Of a DNA stretch of 23,695 nt, positions 4,144 to 22,485 are shown in pieces. Every line of letters starts with the position of its first letter. The stretch's first letter is position 1. The notes under the pieces are model-generated. The model did not search any database. It saw only the letters and a list, made by a program, of their open reading frames with translations, and was not told the origin of the DNA. Made by a program: the position numbers and the translations under genes. Source of the stretch: Candidatus Thorarchaeota archaeon (lineage in GTDB: Archaea > Asgardarchaeota > Thorarchaeia > Thorarchaeales > Thorarchaeaceae); assembly GCA_016839605.1 (NCBI GenBank), contig JAEOTX010000230.1, positions 1-23,695 of the forward strand. Direction: 5' to 3'.

Positions 4144-4231
4144 TGGTGCGGGAGAGGGGACTTGAACCCCTGGACTCCTACGAGAGAGGATCTTAAGTCC
4201 TCCGCCTTTGACCGGTCTTGGCTACTCCCGC
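4144..4231 (-). tRNA. tRNA-Leu(TAA), CCA encoded
   Basis: GCGGGAG acceptor stem, GAGGA-CT-TAA-GA-TCCTC anticodon arm, long variable arm, GGTTCAAGTCC T-arm, ACCA end. Confidence 0.96.
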
Positions 4232-4346: not shown

Positions 4347-4456
4347 TGGTGGGCCGGGCCGGATTTGAACCAGCGACCTTCGAATCTGAAGAGCACAAAG
4401 CTCAACCAGTTTCTCGGTGTAAGCGAGACATCATAGCCGGGCTAGACTACCGGCCC
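4347..4456 (-). tRNA. tRNA-Val(TAC) with a 32-nt intron at position 44/45 (4379-4410), CCA encoded
   Basis: GGGCCGG acceptor stem, TCTCG-CT-TAC-AC-CGAGA anticodon arm, GCTGG-TTCAAAT-CCGGC T-arm. Removing 4379-4410 restores an AGGTC variable loop. TTTTATT box about 28 nt upstream. Confidence 0.9.
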
Positions 4457-10007: not shown

Positions 10008-10032
10008 ATGTAATACAGTTAATACCAGAGAT

Positions 10033-10665
10033 TCAACTCTCAGATTCCATCTGTTCTTTGAGGAACTTCAGTCTGAAGAAGTCTTCACGCTCTCTCTCTT
10101 CAAGGGCCTGTTTTACATATCGGGCAGTTGCATCCAATCTAGGAATTACAATTGTTTCAAGGGCTGAAACGCGTCTTTTAGTACGTTCAATTTCGATTGC
10201 CAGTCGTTTAACGGTTGAATCAATCTCGGCAAGACGTACTACAGCTTTCAGAGCTTCCTTAAACTTGGTTGACATCACATCAAGCTGGACGCTGGAATCT
10301 GGAAGTGAATATGGAAGCTGAGGGACATGTTGTTCTACTGATAGAACTGGAACTACCACACCCATCATGGACCTTGTGGATATTCTCAGATCCGCTTGGA
10401 CTTTACTTGCATTTGCGAACTCAACGACCTCAGCTGGACCCATGACCATCTTTGTTTTAGTTAGTGCAGAAAATGCTGAAGCTAGGGCCACATCAACCTC
10501 TTCCCTAGTCTTCTTAATCTCTTCAATTGAGTTGAAGAATTCCATAATTAGCGAGTCACGTTTCTCTTTGAGAAGATTATGACCTCGTTCTGCGAGTCTC
10601 ATCCTGTTCTTCAGTCGCAGGAGCTCCATTCGAGTCGTCTTGGTTCCAGGTAGAATTTTGCTCAT
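10033..10665 (-). CDS. atpD: A/V-type ATP synthase subunit D
   Basis: TRMELLRLK, GHNLLKEKRD, EIERTKRRVSALE and LEEREREDFFRLK motifs. Confidence 0.95.
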   Translation of the reverse strand: MSKILPGTKTTRMELLRLKNRMRLAERGHNLLKEKRDSLIMEFFNSIEEIKKTREEVDVALASAFSALTKTKMVMGPAEVVEFANASKVQADLRISTRSMMGVVVPVLSVEQHVPQLPYSLPDSSVQLDVMSTKFKEALKAVVRLAEIDSTVKRLAIEIERTKRRVSALETIVIPRLDATARYVKQALEEREREDFFRLKFLKEQMESES

Positions 10666-11135: not shown

Positions 11136-11191
11136 TTTATTAGCGGCCAGTGCCCTGCCGGCATTGTATTACAAGAAGTACATGTGATACC
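11136..11191 (+). promoter_or_regulatory. TATA box (TTTATTA) followed by a triple 9-bp array, candidate operator of the ATPase-RHH operon
   Basis: TATA at 11136-11142; TGTATTACA-AGAAGTACA-TGTGATACC at 11165-11191 covers the expected transcription start; GAGGT ribosome-binding site at 11194-11198. Confidence 0.6.
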
Positions 11192-11204
11192 AAGAGGTCA
11201 CATC

Positions 11205-12179
11205 ATGACAATAGCGATACACGAAAGTGCGTTGATTCGCCACTTCAACACTCGCAAGGAAGTTTTGCGGGCCTGGGAGGAAAGAATCGGCGCCAGGTTC
11301 TCACCGTTTCGTGGGTATAAGATGCCGGACTCGCGTCTCTACGTTGAGCATCCGGACTTCTTAGACAGCATTGTCGATCTGATAATTACAAATGAGAGAC
11401 ACATCTTTCTCAGAGGACCGGTAGGTTCAGGGAAAAGTACTCTCATGTTGCTGGCACTCAGGGACCTGCCAACCCTAGCAGACCGACGAGGAAACAAATT
11501 CGTCACAGGCTATGTAGGGATGACCGGTCTTTATGAGAAACAGATGTCAGCAGCGATAGCAGACTCGTTGAGAGTAAAGTATCGCAGATCTTGGGAGTCA
11601 AGTCAGATCGTAGAATCAATTGCCCAAGAATGTGTGAGAAGATATAGGGAAGAGAAGAGCCGCACAGCCCTATTTGTGGAAGATGTTGCCGACAACCAAG
11701 AAGCGGCATTCCACAAGCTCAGATACCTTGCAGACCTGCCTACTCAGGAGATGAAAGCTGATCATCCAGAGGTGTTAGATGAGCCGATTATCACTTTGAT
11801 AATGTCGGGAACAGCTGTGTACTGGAACGCAATGCTAAGCTTCTTGCCGCAGATTGCGGATAGGACTGAGCCGCTTGATGTTCCTGCTCTAGACGATGAG
11901 AAAGCCAAGGAGTTCATTGGCAGAAGAATCGCCTATGCGAAAGGGCAGATTGACACCTTTGATTTGGATGATTACGGTGTCTACCCGTTCGCTGATGATG
12001 CTGTAGTAGTCATCAATACAGCGGCCAAGGGTAATCCACGTGACATTCGTATGTTGTCAAGAGGTTGTCAACAGGTGGCTGCAGAAAATTTCAGGCAGAA
12101 TGGCAATCCGGAAGTTAACAGAAAAATTGCAGAGCTTGTTTCGGATGCCTATGCTACAATACTGAGAGAGGTGCGTTAG
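11205..12179 (+). CDS. AAA+ ATPase, ExeA/GspA-TnsC-like (AAA_22-type), with no C-terminal winged helix
   Basis: PF...PD..LY N-terminal segment, Walker A GPVGSGKST, Walker B LFVED, Arg finger IADR, sensor II GNPRDI. ATG at 11205 chosen for its ribosome-binding site; the ORF track starts at GTG 11184. Confidence 0.85.
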   Translation: MTIAIHESALIRHFNTRKEVLRAWEERIGARFSPFRGYKMPDSRLYVEHPDFLDSIVDLIITNERHIFLRGPVGSGKSTLMLLALRDLPTLADRRGNKFVTGYVGMTGLYEKQMSAAIADSLRVKYRRSWESSQIVESIAQECVRRYREEKSRTALFVEDVADNQEAAFHKLRYLADLPTQEMKADHPEVLDEPIITLIMSGTAVYWNAMLSFLPQIADRTEPLDVPALDDEKAKEFIGRRIAYAKGQIDTFDLDDYGVYPFADDAVVVINTAAKGNPRDIRMLSRGCQQVAAENFRQNGNPEVNRKIAELVSDAYATILREVR

Positions 12180-12181
12180 GT

Positions 12182-12478
12182 TTGAGTGTTCTGAAAAAGT
12201 ATCGAGATGCTGGTGAAGAGGAAAGAGATTCAGCAAAGCCGGCTGCAGAGTCAGGGACTAGGGTTGCAGTAGAAAAACCAAAAGTTATGATTGCTGTGCC
12301 CAATAAAGAGCGAAAGAGTCCGATCGTGTCATTCTCGTTCACGACCGAACTTCGATCTTGTCTACAGAATGTGCGAAACGAAAAGGCAATCAATCTGAGT
12401 ATGTGGGTTGAGAGAAAGCTTCGAAAAGCGCTGACTGAGGAGTTCCCAGACATAGCCGACAAACATCTTGAAGTCTGA
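12182..12478 (+). CDS. Probable ribbon-helix-helix DNA-binding protein with a disordered N-terminal tail
   Basis: IVSFSF strand, TTELRSCLQNVRNEK helix and INLSMWVERKLRKAL helix. GAGGTG ribosome-binding site inside the ATPase 3' end; 2-nt gap to the ATPase gene. Confidence 0.75.
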   Translation: MSVLKKYRDAGEEERDSAKPAAESGTRVAVEKPKVMIAVPNKERKSPIVSFSFTTELRSCLQNVRNEKAINLSMWVERKLRKALTEEFPDIADKHLEV

Positions 12479-12496: not shown

Positions 12497-13891
12497 TTAG
12501 CTCTCTCTTGCACGCATCTCCGAGTATTCTGTAACTCGTGCCATGCATAGGGCAGCTAACGCCGGATTGTCGTAACAAGGAATACGATTCATCTCAAGTA
12601 GATCCTTTCCAGGTTTCCCTACATCACCTGCAAGCCACACTCCAACAACGGGCTTTTTGACATCTGCAGTCCGTATTCCTTCTAGGGTACCAGCTGCATG
12701 TTCAGTCTGTGTCATTCCAGCAAAAGTTGGTACTCCACATATCACTAATAGCATGTCGAGGTTAGGGTCTTTGAGCATCAGCTCAGTAGAAACTCGATAT
12801 TCTCCTCTCCCACCACTTGCAACAACATCTACAGGATTGTTGACTGATGCCATTGGAGATAGGACTTGACGTAATTCTTGACATGTCTTCTGCTCTAAGG
12901 CAGGGATATTGAGTCCGAGATCAGCTGATGCGTCGGTTGCAAGAACACCAGCTCCTCCTGTATTACTAATAATACCGATATTACGTCCTTTTGGTAGAGA
13001 TTGGTAATCAAACAACTTGGCTATTTCTAGAAGTGTGTCAAGAGAAGGAGCTGTCACACAGCCTGCCTGCCGAATCATTCCATCGAATATTGCCGTTGAG
13101 CCTGCCAATGATCCTGTGTGGGATTGGGTTGCTCGACTGCCAGCTTCACTCCTTCCACCCTTCAATACAACAACTGGTTTCTTCTTTGCAGCCCTAGTGA
13201 GAGACTCGAAGAAAGGTCGACCATCATCTACTCCCTCTATATAGACCATGATTACAGTGCTCTTTGGATCATCAGTGAAATAGTCAAGAATCTCCACGAA
13301 ACTGACATCAGCCGAGTTGCCAATACTAGCGAACTTGCTGAGACCAATACGTTTGGTGCGTGTGGTGTATATGAGCATACCACCAAGGGCTCCACTCTGG
13401 GAGATTAACGAGATATTGCCCCGTTCAGGCATCATAGTAAATGTGCCATTAAACAACCTACTGTTGGAAACACCCACACAATTAGGACCAATGATCCGAA
13501 CTCCTGCGTCTTGGGCAGCTCTGACTAGCTCTTCCTCAAGTTGTGCGCCCTGATGGCCTGTCTCACTGAAACCACCTGATATCACTACTGCAGCTTTGGC
13601 ACCAGCTCCTTGAATCTGACTCATTAGACCTGGACAATACTTTGCTGCAACGGCAACTATGACCAAGTCTACAGGCTCTGGAAGACTGTCAAGACTTGGG
13701 TATGCCTTGACCCCAAGGACCTGTTGCCTGCTACGAGTCACAGGATAGACATCAATCTCGGAAGTGATAAGGTTCATGAGAATAGAGTTACCCAACTTTC
13801 GATAATCAGATGATGCTCCGACTAGGGCAACACTTGAAGGATTGAAAAAGCAATCAATCTCATCGAATCCTTTGGATCCTAGATTGGTCAT
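12497..13891 (-). CDS. acdA: ADP-forming acyl/acetate-CoA synthetase, alpha subunit
   Basis: FNPSSVALVGAS, IGPNCVG, SQSGALG, SHTGSLAG (phospho-His), SNTGGAGV and NPVDV motifs. Start reassigned to ATG 13891. Confidence 0.92.
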   Translation of the reverse strand: MTNLGSKGFDEIDCFFNPSSVALVGASSDYRKLGNSILMNLITSEIDVYPVTRSRQQVLGVKAYPSLDSLPEPVDLVIVAVAAKYCPGLMSQIQGAGAKAAVVISGGFSETGHQGAQLEEELVRAAQDAGVRIIGPNCVGVSNSRLFNGTFTMMPERGNISLISQSGALGGMLIYTTRTKRIGLSKFASIGNSADVSFVEILDYFTDDPKSTVIMVYIEGVDDGRPFFESLTRAAKKKPVVVLKGGRSEAGSRATQSHTGSLAGSTAIFDGMIRQAGCVTAPSLDTLLEIAKLFDYQSLPKGRNIGIISNTGGAGVLATDASADLGLNIPALEQKTCQELRQVLSPMASVNNPVDVVASGGRGEYRVSTELMLKDPNLDMLLVICGVPTFAGMTQTEHAAGTLEGIRTADVKKPVVGVWLAGDVGKPGKDLLEMNRIPCYDNPALAALCMARVTEYSEMRARES

Positions 13892-13965
13892 GATTCTGAA
13901 CCAATTATGATTCGATTTATGTCTGCCGAGGGAAAGTCCGAGTTGTTGTATTACAAGTAATATTA

Positions 13966-15192
13966 TTACAAGGCTTCTCTCTTTAGAAAGTGCCTTAGGT
14001 GCCGGCGATTTTTGCATTCAGATTCCAAAGCCTCCTTAATCACAACCAGAGTTTCAGGGGATTTTTTCAGGATGTTGTCAAGAGCTTTCACTGAGGCTTT
14101 GATAATCCGTTCATCCATGGTCTTACAAACCAGGTCGACAATGGAATGGGCCGATGATTCGTGATAGAGATTTCCTAAGGCGATTATCGCCGGAGTAACA
14201 ATTCGTTGATCATCCACTCTAAGTAATTTCTCAAGGTGAGCAATTGAATTCAAATGACGAACTGCAACATGACCATTGATACATTGCAGCAGCTTTCGAT
14301 AGTCCTCACTTGATTTGGAAGTCATGTATTGAATGACAGCATCATCTAGTATTGCGTTCAGAGTAAATAGGGAATGCGTGCTGCCCTTGGATATGAGACC
14401 TTCAATGTCTTGACCTATGATGTGTTGGTGGAGTTCTTTGTACATCTGATTTGACGGGCTGACAATGGCTATCCCAGATACTTCTGCTGTTTCAGATGTT
14501 GTGATTCCTTGTTTCACTTCTGGTGATACTTGTATTACTGATAATACCATATCAAGTTGCTCTATTGATGCTTTAGTTCCTTTGATTCCAAGATCGGATA
14601 TAGCCAGGCGACCATATTCTGAATACCATAAATGTGTAAGATCCACATGTTCACCATCAAGTTTGAGAGTAAGATTGGCCATCTTTTCCGTCCGGATTGA
14701 TTCTAGTAGTCTACTGAGTTCATCGAACTTCTCATCCGGGGGGAAACTGAAGTATAGAGTGTCACCAGATTCTATTTGTTTCATTGCAGTTTCTTGTGCA
14801 TAGAGTATTAGTGACTGTGATGCATCGGCTAGAGAAGTCTTTGATTCTAGCATTTGAAGAAGGGTCATAGTATCTGTTTGCACTGGTTCAAGTCCACTGC
14901 AGGATAAAAGACTAAAGATCATTTCGCGGTACTTTAAGGGCTCAACTTGTGTCTGTTGTTTTCCGAAGCTGGCAGGAGTGGAATACATCTTGTCGGCTGC
15001 CGCAATGAGATATTCTAGTGCTGTATTCCATCCCTTGTTCTGTTCCACGGCTGCAACTAAGTCGAGCAGGTCTCGAGATCTTCTCTCACCTATGGCGTTA
15101 GTGATATCATGCAGAGTGTGTTCCATTTCTGCTTTTTCCGCACGTTCTCGACTTGCTCTTAGGAACCACTTGTCATCCCTGTCATCCGACAT
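13966..15192 (-). CDS. Hypothetical alpha-helical protein with C-terminal HEAT-like repeats
   Basis: Long ORF; IVTPAIIALGNL and IIKASVKALDNI resemble HEAT repeats; GGAG upstream of ATG 15192. Confidence 0.7.
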   Translation of the reverse strand: MSDDRDDKWFLRASRERAEKAEMEHTLHDITNAIGERRSRDLLDLVAAVEQNKGWNTALEYLIAAADKMYSTPASFGKQQTQVEPLKYREMIFSLLSCSGLEPVQTDTMTLLQMLESKTSLADASQSLILYAQETAMKQIESGDTLYFSFPPDEKFDELSRLLESIRTEKMANLTLKLDGEHVDLTHLWYSEYGRLAISDLGIKGTKASIEQLDMVLSVIQVSPEVKQGITTSETAEVSGIAIVSPSNQMYKELHQHIIGQDIEGLISKGSTHSLFTLNAILDDAVIQYMTSKSSEDYRKLLQCINGHVAVRHLNSIAHLEKLLRVDDQRIVTPAIIALGNLYHESSAHSIVDLVCKTMDERIIKASVKALDNILKKSPETLVVIKEALESECKNRRHLRHFLKREAL

Positions 15193-15384
15193 GCTCGGTT
15201 CGACTCCTGCAGTAATGCTGGAATCCTTGTTTCGAGTGATAAGACTTTGTCCAGCTGTTCTGTATTGTTTGTATCTTTTGTAATACAATGGAATAATGCC
15301 TGAGAAGACGCGTCTTTTTGGTGCCTGAAGGAGAAGATGAATCTGTTCTAAGATTAGAACTATGTATACTTGTGACCCTGTAAA

Positions 15385-15567
15385 GTATGAGTATGTCGTG
15401 TCAATGGCAGACTAGTGCTATGGGATTTCCATCCTTTGGCACCCTCAAACACCCGTCGTTGGCATCTCTATCTCCTCAAGTAAAGTACCTCCAAGAAGAT
15501 CCAATGCCGGCATGAGTTCGGTGCTAGGAAACCTGACTGACTTGCCGCAGATACGACATGCTCGTGC
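15385..15567 (+). ncRNA. Putative structured non-coding RNA of about 183 nt, family not recognised
   Basis: 18-bp terminal helix (15385-15402/15550-15567) and three further nested helices. All non-Watson-Crick pairs are G-U on the plus strand. TATA-like TATGTATA at 15361; T-rich tract at 15570-15579. Confidence 0.7.
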
Positions 15568-15577
15568 CGTTTCTTTT

Positions 15578-16171
15578 CTATGGTTCAGACTTACGCTTGG
15601 ACAGCTCAGACTTGAGTACTGTGGACGAAGTTAGTTCCTCTAGTGCCGAGAGGATGGTTCGCTCAGCTGAGCTATAGCTCTCGATTTCTTCGTCAGAGAG
15701 TTCTGTCTTCCCGGCCAATACATCACGTATTTTCCGATAGTCACCAATCCTTGTAGCTATCTCTTCAAACGGTCTAAAGAGTGTGAAGTCGAATAGACCA
15801 AGATAAGCAAGAAGCAGCATTGTGTATAGACAACGTGTTACATTTCTTCGGGCTTGTCCTAGAGTTCTATTGAACGCACCTCGTGAAACACCACTGGTTC
15901 TTCCCTTCCTTTTCGATCTGAAAGATGCCTTCCTATCATATGGTATGTGACTACCATGTTCATCTTCAACAACGAGGTCTATCAGAAGAGTTTCTAGCTG
16001 GACTTTCGTAAGCGTGGACTGATTGAGCAATGCCTTCATGATAGGTTCCTGCAAGACTCTTTGTGCCCCATCTGCAAGTTGTTTCACAGTATCACGACGT
16101 TTGGTTTTGGACCTTTTCTGACTCATTTGTGCTAGCCTCAAAATGGAGGAAATTGGAAAAGGAGGCTTCAT
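15578..16171 (-). CDS. Hypothetical protein, probable helix-turn-helix DNA-binding protein
   Basis: STLTKVQLETL...VSRGAFNRTLGQARRN has a sigma-region-4/Tfx-like HTH pattern. Alternative start at 16126. Confidence 0.75.
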   Translation of the reverse strand: MKPPFPISSILRLAQMSQKRSKTKRRDTVKQLADGAQRVLQEPIMKALLNQSTLTKVQLETLLIDLVVEDEHGSHIPYDRKASFRSKRKGRTSGVSRGAFNRTLGQARRNVTRCLYTMLLLAYLGLFDFTLFRPFEEIATRIGDYRKIRDVLAGKTELSDEEIESYSSAERTILSALEELTSSTVLKSELSKRKSEP

Positions 16172-16296
16172 AATGCTCCTTTCGTACCTCAGTTACGTAT
16201 GTCTGTATGGATACAATTTTGTATACAATGGAAGTCATAAACCTTCCCGGAGTAAGCTTGTGATACGCTTGTAATACAACAATTAATAGTTGAGAG

Positions 16297-16844: not shown

Positions 16845-19178
16845 TTGAAGCAGAGAGCCGAAATCCATGTGACTGGTATTGTCCAGGGAGTTGGATTCAG
16901 GCCCTTTGTCTATCGAGTTGCCACTGACCACTCATTGGTAGGATTTGTGCTTAATCTAGGGGATGCTGGTGTTCAGATTGTTGTCGAAGGGAAGCGTAGT
17001 GAGATTGATGACTTCCTCAAACAACTGCATTCGAACCCTCCCTCCATTTCACGTATTGATTCGGTTGATATTGAATGGGGATCAGCAACAAACACCTTTG
17101 ATTCCTTTTCGATAAAGAAGTCTTCTACAAAGAGATCTACAGAGTCTGCCCCAGAGATGCCCCCTGATATTGCCATTTGTGAAGACTGTGTCGGAGAGCT
17201 GAGAAGTTCTGATTCACGATGGTATCAGTATCCGTTCACTTCATGCGCAGCATGCGGTCCAAGATACTCAACTATCACTAGTCTTCCCTACGACCGGCCA
17301 AACACTACGATGGTAGATTTTCCCCTATGTAATGTTTGTAATACAGGTTATACAAGTCCATTGGATCGAAGATATCATGCTCAGACAACAGCGTGTGATA
17401 GTTGTGGACCAAGATACCAGCTCTATGATGCAGACGGAAAACTGTTGAAGGGAATCAACTGTATCGATCAGGCAGCACGTCTGTTGGAGAGTAATTCTGT
17501 CCTCGCACTTCATGGCATAGGTGGAACGCATCTTGTGACAAAGACCTCAGACTATAAGCCGATTAGAGTTCTGAGGGAGAGAAAGAATAGGTTTCAACGG
17601 CCATTTGCCATCATGGCCAAAAATCCTGAGGTGTTATTTCAGTTCAGTGTACCCACAGAAAATGAACTACAGCTTATGAAAACTTGGCGAAGGCCTATCA
17701 TCTTAGTCAAGAAGCGTGATGGTTCAAGCCTACCTCAAGAATCACTTGAAGAGATTTCGCCCGGCTTAGATACATTGGGTGTCATGTTACCCTATGCTCC
17801 TCTTCATCATCTTCTGTTTGACAACCTTGATGAGGATGCCTTGGTAATGACAAGTGCGAATCCTACAGGTGTTCCGATGTACATAGACCCATCAGTGATA
17901 ACTTCTGAGTTGGGCGGGGTGGCAGACTATTTCTTGCTGCACAATCGACGAATCCATCAGAGAGCAGATGATTCAGTAATCAAATTCGTTGGCAGTGAAA
18001 ATCCGGTGTTCATTCGACGTGCCAGAGGTTATGTACCCGAACCTTTGGTAATGGACCACATTCATCCTTCAACAAAGGTTGTTGCAGTGGGACCTGAATT
18101 GAAATCTACTGGTGCGGTCCTTAAGTCCAAGAAAATATACATGACTCAGCATATCGGTGATACTGATCGAGTCGAGAACATTGACTTCCTCAGAAACAGC
18201 ATCAATCATCTGATGTTTCTGCTTGGTATCGATGGTGTCGATGGATACGCATGTGACTTGCATCCAGAATTCTTGAGTACAGACCTTGCGGAAAAGATTT
18301 CCTCCGAAATGGATGTGCCATTATATCGGGTACAGCACCATCATGCACATCTTGCAAGTATGCTTGTGGATCATAAAATGAATCTTGATACAAGTATTGT
18401 TTGTATTACAGCCGATGGTTATGGCTATGGTCCCAATGGAGAAGGATGGGGTGGTGACATACTTGTTGGAAACGGGACAGATTTCCTCAGAAGAGGTGGA
18501 CTGGCACCAAGCTTGTATCCTGGAGGCGATCTTTCTGCAAGATATGCAGCACGGTCTCTGATAGGTATCCTTGGAAATGCAGTTGAAACAGAAGATATCT
18601 TGACGGTGTTGTCAGGATCACGAATTGCCTCAGATATGGACCTCTCAGAAGAAACTCTTTCATTACTCTTGCGTGCAAGAAAACAGGACATCAATGTTCT
18701 TCGAAGCACTAGTGTAGGAAGATTCCTTGATGCAGCGGCAATCGCATTGCGAATCTGCTCTGAGAATTCCTATGACGGAGAGTGTCCTATGAAACTGGAA
18801 GCTCATGCATCTGATTCCGATCTTACTATTGAACCGGACTTTGTTTCAAATGGTGATGTGATAGAGCTGAACCCCGTAGACTCTCTCATTAAGATTCTGA
18901 ACCTTAAGAAAGAAGGAATTTCCATCCCCAAAATAGCATATGCCGTACAGCGGCATATTGGTCAAGCACTTGCGAATATGGCATGTGATATTGCTGAAGC
19001 TGAGGACATTGAGTATGTTGGATTTTCTGGAGGTGTGGCCTTGAATCGGATTATTACAGGAGCAATAGTTGATGTGGTTAACTCCAGAACAAAGAAATCT
19101 CTCATCCATGATAGGGTACCACCTGGAGATGGAGGTGTTTCAGCTGGACAGATAGCTGTTGCAGCTGCCAAATGCTAG
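16845..19178 (+). CDS. hypF: [NiFe]-hydrogenase maturation carbamoyltransferase
   Basis: GIVQGVGFRPFVY acylphosphatase domain, paired CxxC Zn fingers, DLHP, QHHHAH and PPGDGGVSAGQ motifs. Confidence 0.97.
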   Translation: MKQRAEIHVTGIVQGVGFRPFVYRVATDHSLVGFVLNLGDAGVQIVVEGKRSEIDDFLKQLHSNPPSISRIDSVDIEWGSATNTFDSFSIKKSSTKRSTESAPEMPPDIAICEDCVGELRSSDSRWYQYPFTSCAACGPRYSTITSLPYDRPNTTMVDFPLCNVCNTGYTSPLDRRYHAQTTACDSCGPRYQLYDADGKLLKGINCIDQAARLLESNSVLALHGIGGTHLVTKTSDYKPIRVLRERKNRFQRPFAIMAKNPEVLFQFSVPTENELQLMKTWRRPIILVKKRDGSSLPQESLEEISPGLDTLGVMLPYAPLHHLLFDNLDEDALVMTSANPTGVPMYIDPSVITSELGGVADYFLLHNRRIHQRADDSVIKFVGSENPVFIRRARGYVPEPLVMDHIHPSTKVVAVGPELKSTGAVLKSKKIYMTQHIGDTDRVENIDFLRNSINHLMFLLGIDGVDGYACDLHPEFLSTDLAEKISSEMDVPLYRVQHHHAHLASMLVDHKMNLDTSIVCITADGYGYGPNGEGWGGDILVGNGTDFLRRGGLAPSLYPGGDLSARYAARSLIGILGNAVETEDILTVLSGSRIASDMDLSEETLSLLLRARKQDINVLRSTSVGRFLDAAAIALRICSENSYDGECPMKLEAHASDSDLTIEPDFVSNGDVIELNPVDSLIKILNLKKEGISIPKIAYAVQRHIGQALANMACDIAEAEDIEYVGFSGGVALNRIITGAIVDVVNSRTKKSLIHDRVPPGDGGVSAGQIAVAAAKC

Positions 19179-19785: not shown

Positions 19786-21678
19786 CTATACCTCCTCTTG
19801 CTTAATTGCACCTTGAGGGCAGACAGAAACACAAGTACCGCACAGATTGCACAGTGTTTCATCTATCACCGCCTTTTCGGTTTCAGGATCCTGGTACATT
19901 GCCGGACAAGACAAACGGTTCAGACAACGCTTGCAAGCCGTACATGTTTCTTCATCAACATAATATTTGGAAGGATACTCGCCGCTTCTCTGACGTTCAG
20001 CTGCTGTAAGAAGAGCGCATGGTTCTATTGACACCATCACTGCTGGTGCTTGGTTTTCCCTAACCCATGTCACCATTTCCCTGACTTCTGCAACCATAGT
20101 CGCCATGGAATCGAATGGTTGGATAGTCTTAACATACTTCACACCAAGCCCCTTGCATACCTCTGCAATATCCAGAGGTGTAACCTGTTCTTGCATTCCC
20201 GTGACTCCTGTACCAGGATGTGGTTGGTGTCCTGTCATTGCCGTAGTTCGATTATCGAGAACTACTAAACTGATGGGGTGACTGTTGTATACTGCATTGG
20301 CAATACCGGGTAGTCCAGAAGCAAAGAAAGTACTGTCACCAATTGTAGCCACAACGTCTTGACCTGTCACACGGACAATTCCACAAGCTGTGGTGATTGA
20401 GGATCCCATATCAAAAAGGATGTCAGCAGTTTCAAGGGGCGGTGCTATACTGAGTGTGTAGCACCCGATATCTGAGGGATAGATTGCCTTTCCGCGTGTG
20501 GCGGTTCTGATAGCATAGTAAGTCGCTCTATGAGGACATCCCGCACAGAGAAGAGGAGGTCTTGGGGGCAAATCCGGAAGCTTTCCAGTCTTCTTGTCTA
20601 TCTTCTCCCAGTTAATACTTGTATTACGATTTATAATTCTAGAGAGTGCTGTGATAACAATTCGGGGACTGTACTCAAATGCCCTGGAAAAGTATCCTTG
20701 TTCTTTTCCAAGAATCTCTACAGATATCTTATTGACCTGAGCAATCCTTCTTGCATGAGTTTCTAGGAATGGTTCTAGCTCCTCAACAATCACAACTCTC
20801 TTGTGATGTTTGAGAAATTCCCCGATTTTCCCTTCAGGTACTGGATGAGTCATACCAAGTTTGAGAACTTCTGCTGAGAGTTCCATTGATTCGAGTGCTT
20901 CAAGGACGTAGTTGTATGATACCCCACTAGTGATTATTCCAAGGTCTCCTTCACCGTATGTGAAATTAAGTGAAGTTGTTTCAGAAACCTCCATTGCCTT
21001 CCTCATGGTTTCAAGAAGTATGGGATGACGTTTTCTAGCAACTGATGGTATTGGAACGAATCGAAATGGATCCTTTTCAAACTCGACTGTTGTAGGACGC
21101 TCCCTGATTTTTCCAAACTCTACAGGAGCTCTTGTATGATTGACACGTGTGGTTGTCCTAAGTAGTACTGGAAGTTCCAACTTCTCTGATATCTCATATG
21201 CCTCAATAAGCATCGATTTTGCCTCGGCAGGATCAGCTGGTTCAACCATTGGCATATTGCCCATTAGGGCATAGTATCTACTGTCATTCTCATTCTGAGA
21301 GCTCCACATACTAGGGTCGTCTGCTACCACGATGACCATACCGGCACGTACACCGATGTAAGTCAATGAAAAGAATGGATCAGCTGCGACATTGAGACCT
21401 GGCCCCTTGCATACCATCATTGATCGTACGCCTGCAACTGCGGCGGCACCAGCAACTTCCAAGGCGACCTTTTCGTTGGCACTGAACTCGAAGTAAAAGT
21501 TTGGTATGTTAGGTGCCATGAATGTGAGATTGTTACCAATTTCACTGCTTGGAGTACCAGGATAAAGCGCAACCAGTCGTACTCCAGCTTCAAGAACGCC
21601 TCGTGCTATTGCCTCGTTAGCAAGAAGAAGAGATTTCTTTCCCACTTTGTCTTCAAGAAGTTCTTTGGGTTTGGTCAA
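19786..21678 (-). CDS. iorA: Indolepyruvate:ferredoxin oxidoreductase subunit alpha
   Basis: YPGTPSSEI, NEKVALE, CAGCPHR, SDIGCY, GDSTF, DNRTTAMTGHQ and a C-terminal 2x[4Fe-4S] domain. Confidence 0.97.
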   Translation of the reverse strand: MTKPKELLEDKVGKKSLLLANEAIARGVLEAGVRLVALYPGTPSSEIGNNLTFMAPNIPNFYFEFSANEKVALEVAGAAAVAGVRSMMVCKGPGLNVAADPFFSLTYIGVRAGMVIVVADDPSMWSSQNENDSRYYALMGNMPMVEPADPAEAKSMLIEAYEISEKLELPVLLRTTTRVNHTRAPVEFGKIRERPTTVEFEKDPFRFVPIPSVARKRHPILLETMRKAMEVSETTSLNFTYGEGDLGIITSGVSYNYVLEALESMELSAEVLKLGMTHPVPEGKIGEFLKHHKRVVIVEELEPFLETHARRIAQVNKISVEILGKEQGYFSRAFEYSPRIVITALSRIINRNTSINWEKIDKKTGKLPDLPPRPPLLCAGCPHRATYYAIRTATRGKAIYPSDIGCYTLSIAPPLETADILFDMGSSITTACGIVRVTGQDVVATIGDSTFFASGLPGIANAVYNSHPISLVVLDNRTTAMTGHQPHPGTGVTGMQEQVTPLDIAEVCKGLGVKYVKTIQPFDSMATMVAEVREMVTWVRENQAPAVMVSIEPCALLTAAERQRSGEYPSKYYVDEETCTACKRCLNRLSCPAMYQDPETEKAVIDETLCNLCGTCVSVCPQGAIKQEEV

Positions 21679-21873
21679 CCACCTAGCCTCCGATCTCCCT
21701 AGCTGTAACTGGGATGAATCGTCCGGAGATGACTCAGTCTATCAACCTTGTGGTATTGGAAATTACAATCTTGTAGATTCTGTAATACATATAATACAAT
21801 AGATTGGATAGTTTTACTAGATTGGAACACGTGTTCTAACATATTGACGTACCCTATATCCAGGTATTATAGT

Positions 21874-22049
21874 CTGACACCCCTTCATTTCCAGTGGAGA
21901 TGATAAAATGGTGTGATCAGAGCGGTGAATGTATGATGATGATAAAATGGAGATAAATGCGAGCTCCATAAACGACTATTTATATATATCTATTTCGAAA
22001 AGTATCGAAACTTTCAAAAGTTTCTAATGGAAATCAAGGGGTGTGTCAG
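21874..22049. other. Archaeal origin of replication: two inverted ORB elements flanking an AT-rich unwinding element
   Basis: Minus-strand ORB TCTCCACTGGAAATGAAGGGGTGTCAG (21874-21900) and plus-strand ORB TTTCTAATGGAAATCAAGGGGTGTGTCAG (22021-22049) fit the TCCA-TGGAAA-G-string pattern. The 120-bp spacer contains TATTTATATATATCTATTT (21977-21995). Confidence 0.85.
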
Positions 22050-22073
22050 GTACTGGAACACGTGTTCCAAACA

Positions 22074-22361
22074 TCATACTTCTCTTACAACTTCAAAAAT
22101 TCTGGCCTTCAAGATGTCTGAATATGATGCAAACAGCGAATCAAAGAGAGATCTGTATTCACCAGGTACAAATATCGCAGAATCTGCCACTGCATATGCA
22201 CCTTCTGACGTATCAATGAGACCTGGTTTCCTTCGCTGCTTAATTCCAGTCTTTGTCTTCCAGGAATAGGCATATCCATACAGCTCCTTTGTGAATGAAA
22301 CACGTCGGGCATTGGTTTCACGTGCACGCCTACAATCATACAAATAGAGGAAAAATGCCAT
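22074..22361 (-). CDS. 95-aa protein, probable Cas2/VapD-like ferredoxin fold
   Basis: MAFFLYLYD (first strand ending in YD), RRVSFTKELYGY helix, DSAIFVP strand. Start reassigned to ATG 22361 because the longer ORF overlaps the next gene. Confidence 0.65.
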   Translation of the reverse strand: MAFFLYLYDCRRARETNARRVSFTKELYGYAYSWKTKTGIKQRRKPGLIDTSEGAYAVADSAIFVPGEYRSLFDSLFASYSDILKARIFEVVREV

Positions 22362-22485
22362 AGAAATTGGAACACATGTTCGTATTTTCAGGCTTAGTAA
22401 TACAAAATTGTTCCAATATGGAAAGGTTAATGCAATGGAAGTGTTCCACGCGAATTGCCTTTTGGAAGCAGGCAGGAGCTCCCAG

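Follow-up and report, generated by a model that had tools for sequence, protein, structure and literature searches.

A candidate partition module for the origin region in Thorarchaeota that pairs an AAA+ ATPase with a tailed RHH protein

What does a tightly paired ATPase gene and small RHH gene do beside a predicted replication origin? The question is raised by a contig of Candidatus Thorarchaeota archaeon (JAEOTX010000230.1, analysed over its full 23,695 nt and here called the window) from a 3.08-Mb assembly that is 80% complete. The locus combines a conserved gene pair, whose products have an AAA+ and an RHH fold, with a private, phased repeat field by the origin and a repeat inside a gene that is under selection (Table 1). 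A first-pass annotation made from the window had suggested a partition system or, alternatively, an initiation regulator. We consider it probable that this is a three-part system of NTPase, adaptor and centromere, driven by an AAA+ motor, that partitions or positions the origin region.

Table 1. Operon, repeat arrays and predicted origin, with positions in the window.
Feature	Position	Strand	Basis or remark
Operon TATA-like box TTTATTAG	11136-11143	+	Sequence; similar AT-rich box upstream in relatives
Triple 9-bp array, TATA box to start codon, over the expected transcription start	11165-11191	.	Sequence, relatives
AAA+ ATPase of 324 aa lacking a C-terminal winged helix; ExeA/MuB/TnsC-like, initiator clade	11205-12179	+	Sequence, model, conservation
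98-aa tailed RHH protein with a conserved tip at the N-terminus, a variable, charged linker, the RHH core from ~residue 46 and one more helix at the C-terminus	12182-12478	+	Homologue comparison
ORF197, HTH-like protein	15578-16171	-	Syntenic with the pair in all carrier families; adjoins parA-parB in f4
Repeat array between convergent genes NAC and V-ATPase D	10009-10035	.	
Triple array inside acyl-CoA synthetase gene	12959-12985	.	
Double array upstream of acyl-CoA synthetase gene	13947-13964	.	
Triple array inside HEAT-repeat gene	14522-14548	.	
Triple array, 5' end of HEAT-repeat gene	15261-15287	.	
Array upstream of ORF197	16270-16287	.	
Triple array inside hypF	17328-17354	.	
Triple array inside hypF with fixed synonymous codons	18384-18410	.	
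Array inside iorA	20611-20637	.	
Last array of the field, ~80 bp from left ORB	21781-21798	.	
Predicted origin: inverted ORB pair, 21880-21898 (-) and 22023-22041 (+), around AT-rich element	21880-22041	.	ORB architecture

The two genes form the tightly coupled operon that the first-pass annotation described. The 98-aa ORF begins with a TTG codon 2 nt 3' of the ATPase ORF, its GAGGTG ribosome-binding site lies inside the 3' end of the ATPase gene, and the two are adjacent in 40/40 intact Thorarchaeota loci. The triple array that the annotation placed between TATA box and start codon is present, though degenerate, with units matching 7, 5 and 6 of the 7 core positions, and an exact first unit is found at most 100 bp upstream of the operon in 40 of 42 related loci. 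Transcription is expected to start within the array, a position suggestive of autorepression.

The ATPase carries a classical Walker A (GPVGSGKS), in agreement with the earlier claim that it lacks the deviant motif of ParA, together with a Walker B (LFVED), an invariant R220 at the arginine-finger position and GNPR as sensor-2 motif. Since the Thorarchaeota Walker B has ED and not DE, hydrolysis may be weak. The AlphaFold2 model is confident (pLDDT 90) and has a P-loop AAA+ fold, neither actin- nor tubulin-like, just as had been claimed; it includes the position of the two-helix insertion that is a feature of initiator-clade ATPases (PMC11292022). Structure searches with this model placed Cdc6/Orc1/ORC at the top (Z 17.4-19.5 over ~250 residues), followed by filament structures of MuB and ShCAST TnsC (Z 17.1), and PDB sequence searches returned nothing useful. 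The 324 residues align to residues 17-291 of the 366 in Cdc6 and end where the Cdc6 winged helix would start. Among 15 diverse members of the ATPase family, 12 match TIGR03015 and 3 match Cdc6, with phrog_296 also among the best sequence-family matches; all the ExeA/TniB-like and Cdc6 matches fall below curated cut-offs and denote family-level likeness only. Against the Cdc6 model TIGR02928 the ATPase scores 12 bits (cut-off, 181). Its identity to Cdc6 is 10-15%, and the family lies outside the Cdc6 clade in our tree (support 100/99), which carries long-branch warnings and leaves the deep relations among ExeA-like groups open. By sequence, then, the protein belongs to an ExeA-like family and, by its model, it has an initiator-clade AAA+ fold, consistent with the ExeA/TnsC/MuB type initially proposed. 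Its gene ranks with the best conserved in the region, with a median identity of 83% across divergent Thorarchaeota (81% for the proteasome ATPase PAN).

In 27 homologues of the 98-aa protein, residues 1-8 and the C-terminal half are conserved, and the linker varies freely. The tip noted in the first-pass annotation thus proves to be conserved, while the linker, described there as low-complexity, is instead charged and variable. The proposed C-terminal RHH pattern likewise gained support through homologues and not from a direct Pfam match of the 98-aa protein itself: the homologue from AC18 (L061) scores above the Pfam RHH_1 cut-off (23.2 versus 20.5 bits) and aligns to the 98-aa family at 98.6% probability. 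Atlas matches also point weakly toward RHH, and a Foldseek search with the RHH model put Arc repressors in the top rows at nonsignificant values (best E, 3.2). Based on the Pfam match and alignment of the homologue, with this weak agreement, we assign the protein as a tailed RHH. Its monomer model has no ribbon strand, as expected for a strand that exists only in the dimer, and its tail has a pLDDT of ~50-58. A complex prediction with two ATPase and two RHH chains, in which the fold of the partner is itself uncertain, scored 0.00 and carries no weight in either direction. We note a variant gene order in a metagenomic locus (L067:486-2472), where a tail-less RHH gene is followed by the ATPase and then by a KaiC/RecA-like ATPase that carries three copies of the tip motif at its N-terminus; the occurrence of the motif on this separate protein hints that the tip is a docking peptide.

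The arrays were said to be scattered toward an origin about 10 kb away, and the field does extend to ~80 bp from the ORB pair. Eight of the 18 exact copies of TGTAWTACA in the genome lie on the 23.7-kb contig, where 0.08 are expected (Poisson P, 3e-14), and the motif is not over-represented genome-wide (18 copies versus 11-18 expected under Markov models). Period-9 dimers, counted at a threshold of at least 13/14 core matches, are still more concentrated, with 9/10 of the genome total in the window (0.01 expected); at periods 8, 10 and 11 there is no dimer enrichment. Phasing is also visible around sites, whose flanks at +/-9 bp match the consensus at 4.3-4.6 of 9 positions (2.2-3.4 at other offsets). 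The complete chromosome CP070658 has 7 of its 8 exact sites within 13 kb around the operon, and four other genomes likewise have a single cluster. A survey of 30 long loci gave 226 sites. Intergenic positions are over-represented among them, 77 are buried well inside coding sequence and many of the rest fall between the ends of convergent genes, places in which a transcription operator makes little sense. At the hypF site the codons TGT ATT are fixed in 21/21 loci and ACA is found in 18/21, where 7.9% would be expected for the triplet, unlike the next alanine codon, which varies; the peptide at this site differs from that of lineages without the TGTAWTACA repeat. Judged from these codons, the pattern is what selection on the DNA would give, with the caveat that the relatives are not independent. 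Two other sources of the repeats were considered and rejected: chance, given 0.08 sites and 0.01 dimers expected against 8 and 9 found, and, for the intragenic sites of hypF, protein constraint.

The origin is called from ORB architecture and not from mapping. The same ORB pair lies 10.5 kb from the operon in CP070658, where GC skew, computed over a sample of 34% of the sequence, tracks coding-strand bias and does not reveal an origin. Arrays are missing from the other ORB sites of CP070658, among them the site next to cdc6 at 784 kb. The nearest cdc6 in Thorarchaeota is 35 kb from the origin, and the genomes keep several intact cdc6 genes. No transposase occurs among the called or matched neighbours of the pair. 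ORF197 has the family distribution of the ATPase plus f3, f4 and f14, with Bathyarchaeia homologues in the Atlas and a weak sigma70-region-4-like signal, and is possibly a third component or a general origin-region or segregation factor. The hypF gene (16845-19178, +) adjoins the module in Thorarchaeota, f13, f14, f15 and f16, an adjacency that likely reflects ancestral synteny and has no obvious functional link.

Checked across related genomes, conservation of the pair, its linkage to origins and its co-occurrence with a motif were found in many. Clear ATPase orthologues occur in f1 (77/85 genomes, nearly all with the pair in single copy), f2, f13, which matches Heimdallarchaeote AC18, f15, f16, f28 and f29, the Odinarchaeia by source names. 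They are absent from the large families f22 (0/135), f8 (0/31) and f11 (0/22) and from f10 and f21. Five further Asgard families have a similar pair near cdc6 or ORBs, and in 3/5 it is accompanied by a different private repeat of its own. In five test genomes from other families, the ATPase or a slot-equivalent pair lies 2.6-10 kb from cdc6, always with a tailed small protein directly after the ATPase and with ORF197 within ~3 kb. The f14 locus has a more divergent 439-aa ATPase and an RHH gene at the same place, also near cdc6. The repeat of f13 is again TGTAWTACA, that of f15 and f16 is GATATC at period 13 and that of f14 is TCAWTGA at period 9. In a complete 3.6-Mb genome, 6/6 of the GATATC period-13 dimers lie within 11.4 kb of the operon, and every TCAWTGA dimer in five f14 genomes lies near the pair. 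Since these repeats were chosen at the loci before being searched for in whole genomes, what is informative is that they are absent elsewhere. Single sites cluster weakly in the AT-rich genomes G087 and G316, and a search near the Odinarchaeia-type pair yielded no private repeat.

The pair is lacking in family f4, which does have ORF197 and ORBs, with a canonical parA-parB operon between the two. With 8 candidates scored per genome, a strong ParA was found in 0/135 genomes of the carrier families, in 3/3 of f4 and sporadically elsewhere (12/261). The pair is missing from most Asgard families, and from these ParA is mostly missing too; the mutual exclusivity therefore amounts to one replacement event and not to a statistical association. 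In f4 a 132-aa gene lies between the ORBs and parA-parB (G007, L126:17574-17972, +), and a homologue of it stands next to ORBs in f3.

An exhaustive profile search with the ATPase family also reached a haloarchaeal protein (E 5e-4) whose family has at least 52 members. In each case examined this ATPase is followed by one or more small genes, encoding a charged-tail RHH where checked, and the cassettes sit on mobile elements with local short repeats. One is carried by the circular 58-kb plasmid unnamed3 of the cultured Natronosalvus rutilus WLHS1 (NZ_CP100358.1, cassette at 57400-58468 and 1-245), which has a phage tail-tube gene and a short repeat found only around the cassette; a six-frame search of this plasmid found no ParA-type Walker A. 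By the example of P1 and N15, the par cassette of a plasmid-prophage would be expected at such a place. No phage record matched the haloarchaeal ATPase. The plasmid looks like an unannotated tailed-virus plasmid-prophage, and the ends of its record share an 11-bp overlap. Since haloarchaeal and Asgard ATPases share ~22% identity and the Thor-type, Odin-type, f14 and haloarchaeal ATPases do not form one clade in the tree, we describe a shared design and make no claim of common descent for the cassettes.

Among the closest known designs are type Ib partition cassettes (ParF-ParG-parH of TP228 and delta-omega of pSM19035), which share with this locus an NTPase gene followed by a small RHH gene, a flexible N-terminal RHH tail with basic residues, and short tandem repeats at the promoter and nearby. 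Type I systems are defined by a ParA/MinD ATPase with the deviant Walker A KGGxxK[S/T] (PMC9178275); the adjacent tailed RHH and locus-private tandem repeats are present here, and that motif is absent. The type Ib motor is thus a deviant-Walker ParA/MinD protein, whereas ours is an AAA+ ATPase that has a lid, an arginine finger and a classical Walker A, and the repeats here are split into numerous short arrays that span 12 kb of chromosome and also fall within genes. Types II and III use actin- or tubulin-like NTPases (ParM, TubZ) in place of the P-loop AAA+ fold seen here. Also among them is SegAB-segS of Sulfolobales, an archaeal chromosomal two-gene operon with an RHH-type adaptor, a triple repeat just upstream and scattered partial arrays (PMC12139799). 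SegA, however, is ParA-like, no sequence similarity to this system was found, and segS lies 166 kb from an origin with partial sites genome-wide (PMC12139799), whereas the present field is confined and touches the origin. MuB, TnsC and ExeA (COG3267-type) share the AAA+ fold and are the best sequence family, but they work with a transposase or secretion partner and, for MuB and TnsC, beside a DDE transposase in a mobile element; this ATPase has an RHH partner and is chromosomal, vertically conserved and origin-linked among fixed housekeeping and origin genes, and its homologues do not sit mostly beside transposases or secretion genes. Because the module lacks a defining feature of each, it is not a type I, II or III partition system, an Orc1/Cdc6 or a transposon ATPase module. 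Its mode of action is most likely that of a type Ib cassette driven by another motor.

We hypothesize that RHH dimers sit next to one another on the arrays, bound to the 9-bp palindrome, that the bound arrays mark ~12 kb beside the origin as a centromere-like patch and that the dimers repress their own operon from the promoter array, all three of which are predicted and likely. By analogy with MuB and TnsC, the ATP-bound ATPase may oligomerise on non-specific DNA; the flexible RHH tail would contact it through its conserved basic tip and trigger hydrolysis and release, and the marked origin would clear the ATPase locally and be moved or spaced along the nucleoid. In the presence of ATP, MuB forms polymers on non-specific DNA, from which it is released once MuA bound at its site stimulates hydrolysis (PMC11292022); stimulation of ParF by the ParG tail is likewise known (reference in PMC9178275). 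The MuB/MuA logic is the same as that of ParA and its adaptor, which is why we propose that an RHH-marked origin clears an AAA+ coat. Comparison of sequences favours partition over the alternatives on account of the lineage-private repeats, the parA-parB operon at the same locus in a pair-less family and the cassette on a ParA-less plasmid-prophage. Among the points against it, the best fold matches are Cdc6/Orc1, which fit initiation equally, and the core of the repeat is that of the aCcr1 box.

It is unlikely, in our judgement, that the pair instead regulates initiation, the RHH protein supplying the sequence-specific domain missing from a winged-helix-less Cdc6-like ATPase so that the pair licenses, times or blocks the ORB origin. 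The initiator-clade module shared with archaeal Orc1/Cdc6, including the insertion position, the linkage to an origin that no cdc6 adjoins in Thorarchaeota, the end of the field so close to an ORB and the location within 10 kb of cdc6 in other families would all suit such a role, but the ATPase is ExeA-like by sequence, falls outside TIGR02928 and the Cdc6 clade and has no winged-helix domain. Its repeat is not an ORB, its arrays are spread along 12 kb to one side instead of being gathered at the unwinding element, and the other ORB sites of the complete chromosome do without them. That several intact cdc6 genes are kept, and that parA-parB holds the locus in f4, also argues against initiation.

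Compaction roles of SegB and SegA in Sulfolobus (PMC12139799) suggest an origin-domain organiser, in which arrays and ATPase, with no directional transport, would serve to compact, loop or anchor the region or to load a condensin-like complex. Short arrays dispersed over 12 kb suit bridging, and ORF197 travels with the locus, yet we hold this to be improbable as a full account, since by itself it leaves the two-gene cassette on plasmid-prophages unexplained and no SMC gene was found at the locus in the regions examined.

A local transcription circuit, with an aCcr1/CdrS-like RHH repressor and the ATPase as co-regulator acting on origin-proximal genes, is very unlikely. The aCcr1/CdrS proteins share the RHH fold and a 9-bp palindromic box with the same GTAWTAC core, located from TATA box to start codon (PMC9976878), which is the position of the operon's own array, and the excess of intergenic sites would agree. 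The likeness is one of fold and motif core; aCcr1/CdrS are tail-less global transcription factors with no ATPase partner, and aCcr1 sites occupy hundreds of promoters genome-wide, whereas TGTAWTACA is confined to one patch of 12-13 kb with a third of its sites intragenic and many in gaps where genes converge. The neighbouring genes have no function in common, and other lineages keep the same layout with unrelated repeats.

A domesticated mobile-element remnant, that is, a transposition or secretion ATPase with no chromosome role, is largely refuted by conservation and synteny and scarcely credible, since the transposon and secretion functions of ExeA/TnsC/MuB relatives, the related cassettes on haloarchaeal mobile elements and a T2SSE-family gene 2.6 kb from the pair in AC18-type loci stand against 83% median identity, fixed gene order, the lack of a nearby transposase and a repeat under selection.

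To our knowledge, the motors of NTPase-driven partition systems are of the ParA, actin or tubulin kind, and an AAA+ motor of the ORC/MuB group would therefore be a new type. We found no published description of the module in a search that covered few subscription journals. Partition by the module carries with it a wider proposal, which we rate as evenly balanced: a fourth class of partition motor, an initiator-clade AAA+ ATPase related to MuB, TnsC, ORC and Cdc6 that, with an RHH adaptor and phased repeats, would segregate or position Asgard origins and haloarchaeal plasmid-prophages and be functionally interchangeable with ParAB. If true, it would link replication-initiator-like ATPases to chromosome movement. 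The locus offers a defined candidate for tests in vitro, made up of two small proteins and one exact DNA motif, and the haloarchaeal cassette allows a test in a culturable, genetically tractable group.

Other elements of the window were recorded around the origin and beyond. A second palindrome, with the core GAACACGTGTTC, brackets the ORB pair (21823-21838, 22054-22069 and 22367-22382) and recurs beside other ORBs (G001, 1,698,049; G000, C195:3709); from this recurrence, and with 6 exact copies in the genome, it follows ORBs and not the AAA+/RHH field. The 95-aa ORF that adjoins the origin (22074-22361, -) has no Pfam or PHROG match, and its residue pattern suggests a Cas2/ferredoxin-like fold; homologues lie beside ORBs and cdc6 in Odinarchaeia, f15, f16, f28, f2 and probably f14. 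Rfam gave no match at 15385-15579. It did identify, as the sole source of these calls, a tRNA-Leu(TAA) and a second, apparently intron-containing tRNA at 4144-4231 and 4350-4456 (-).
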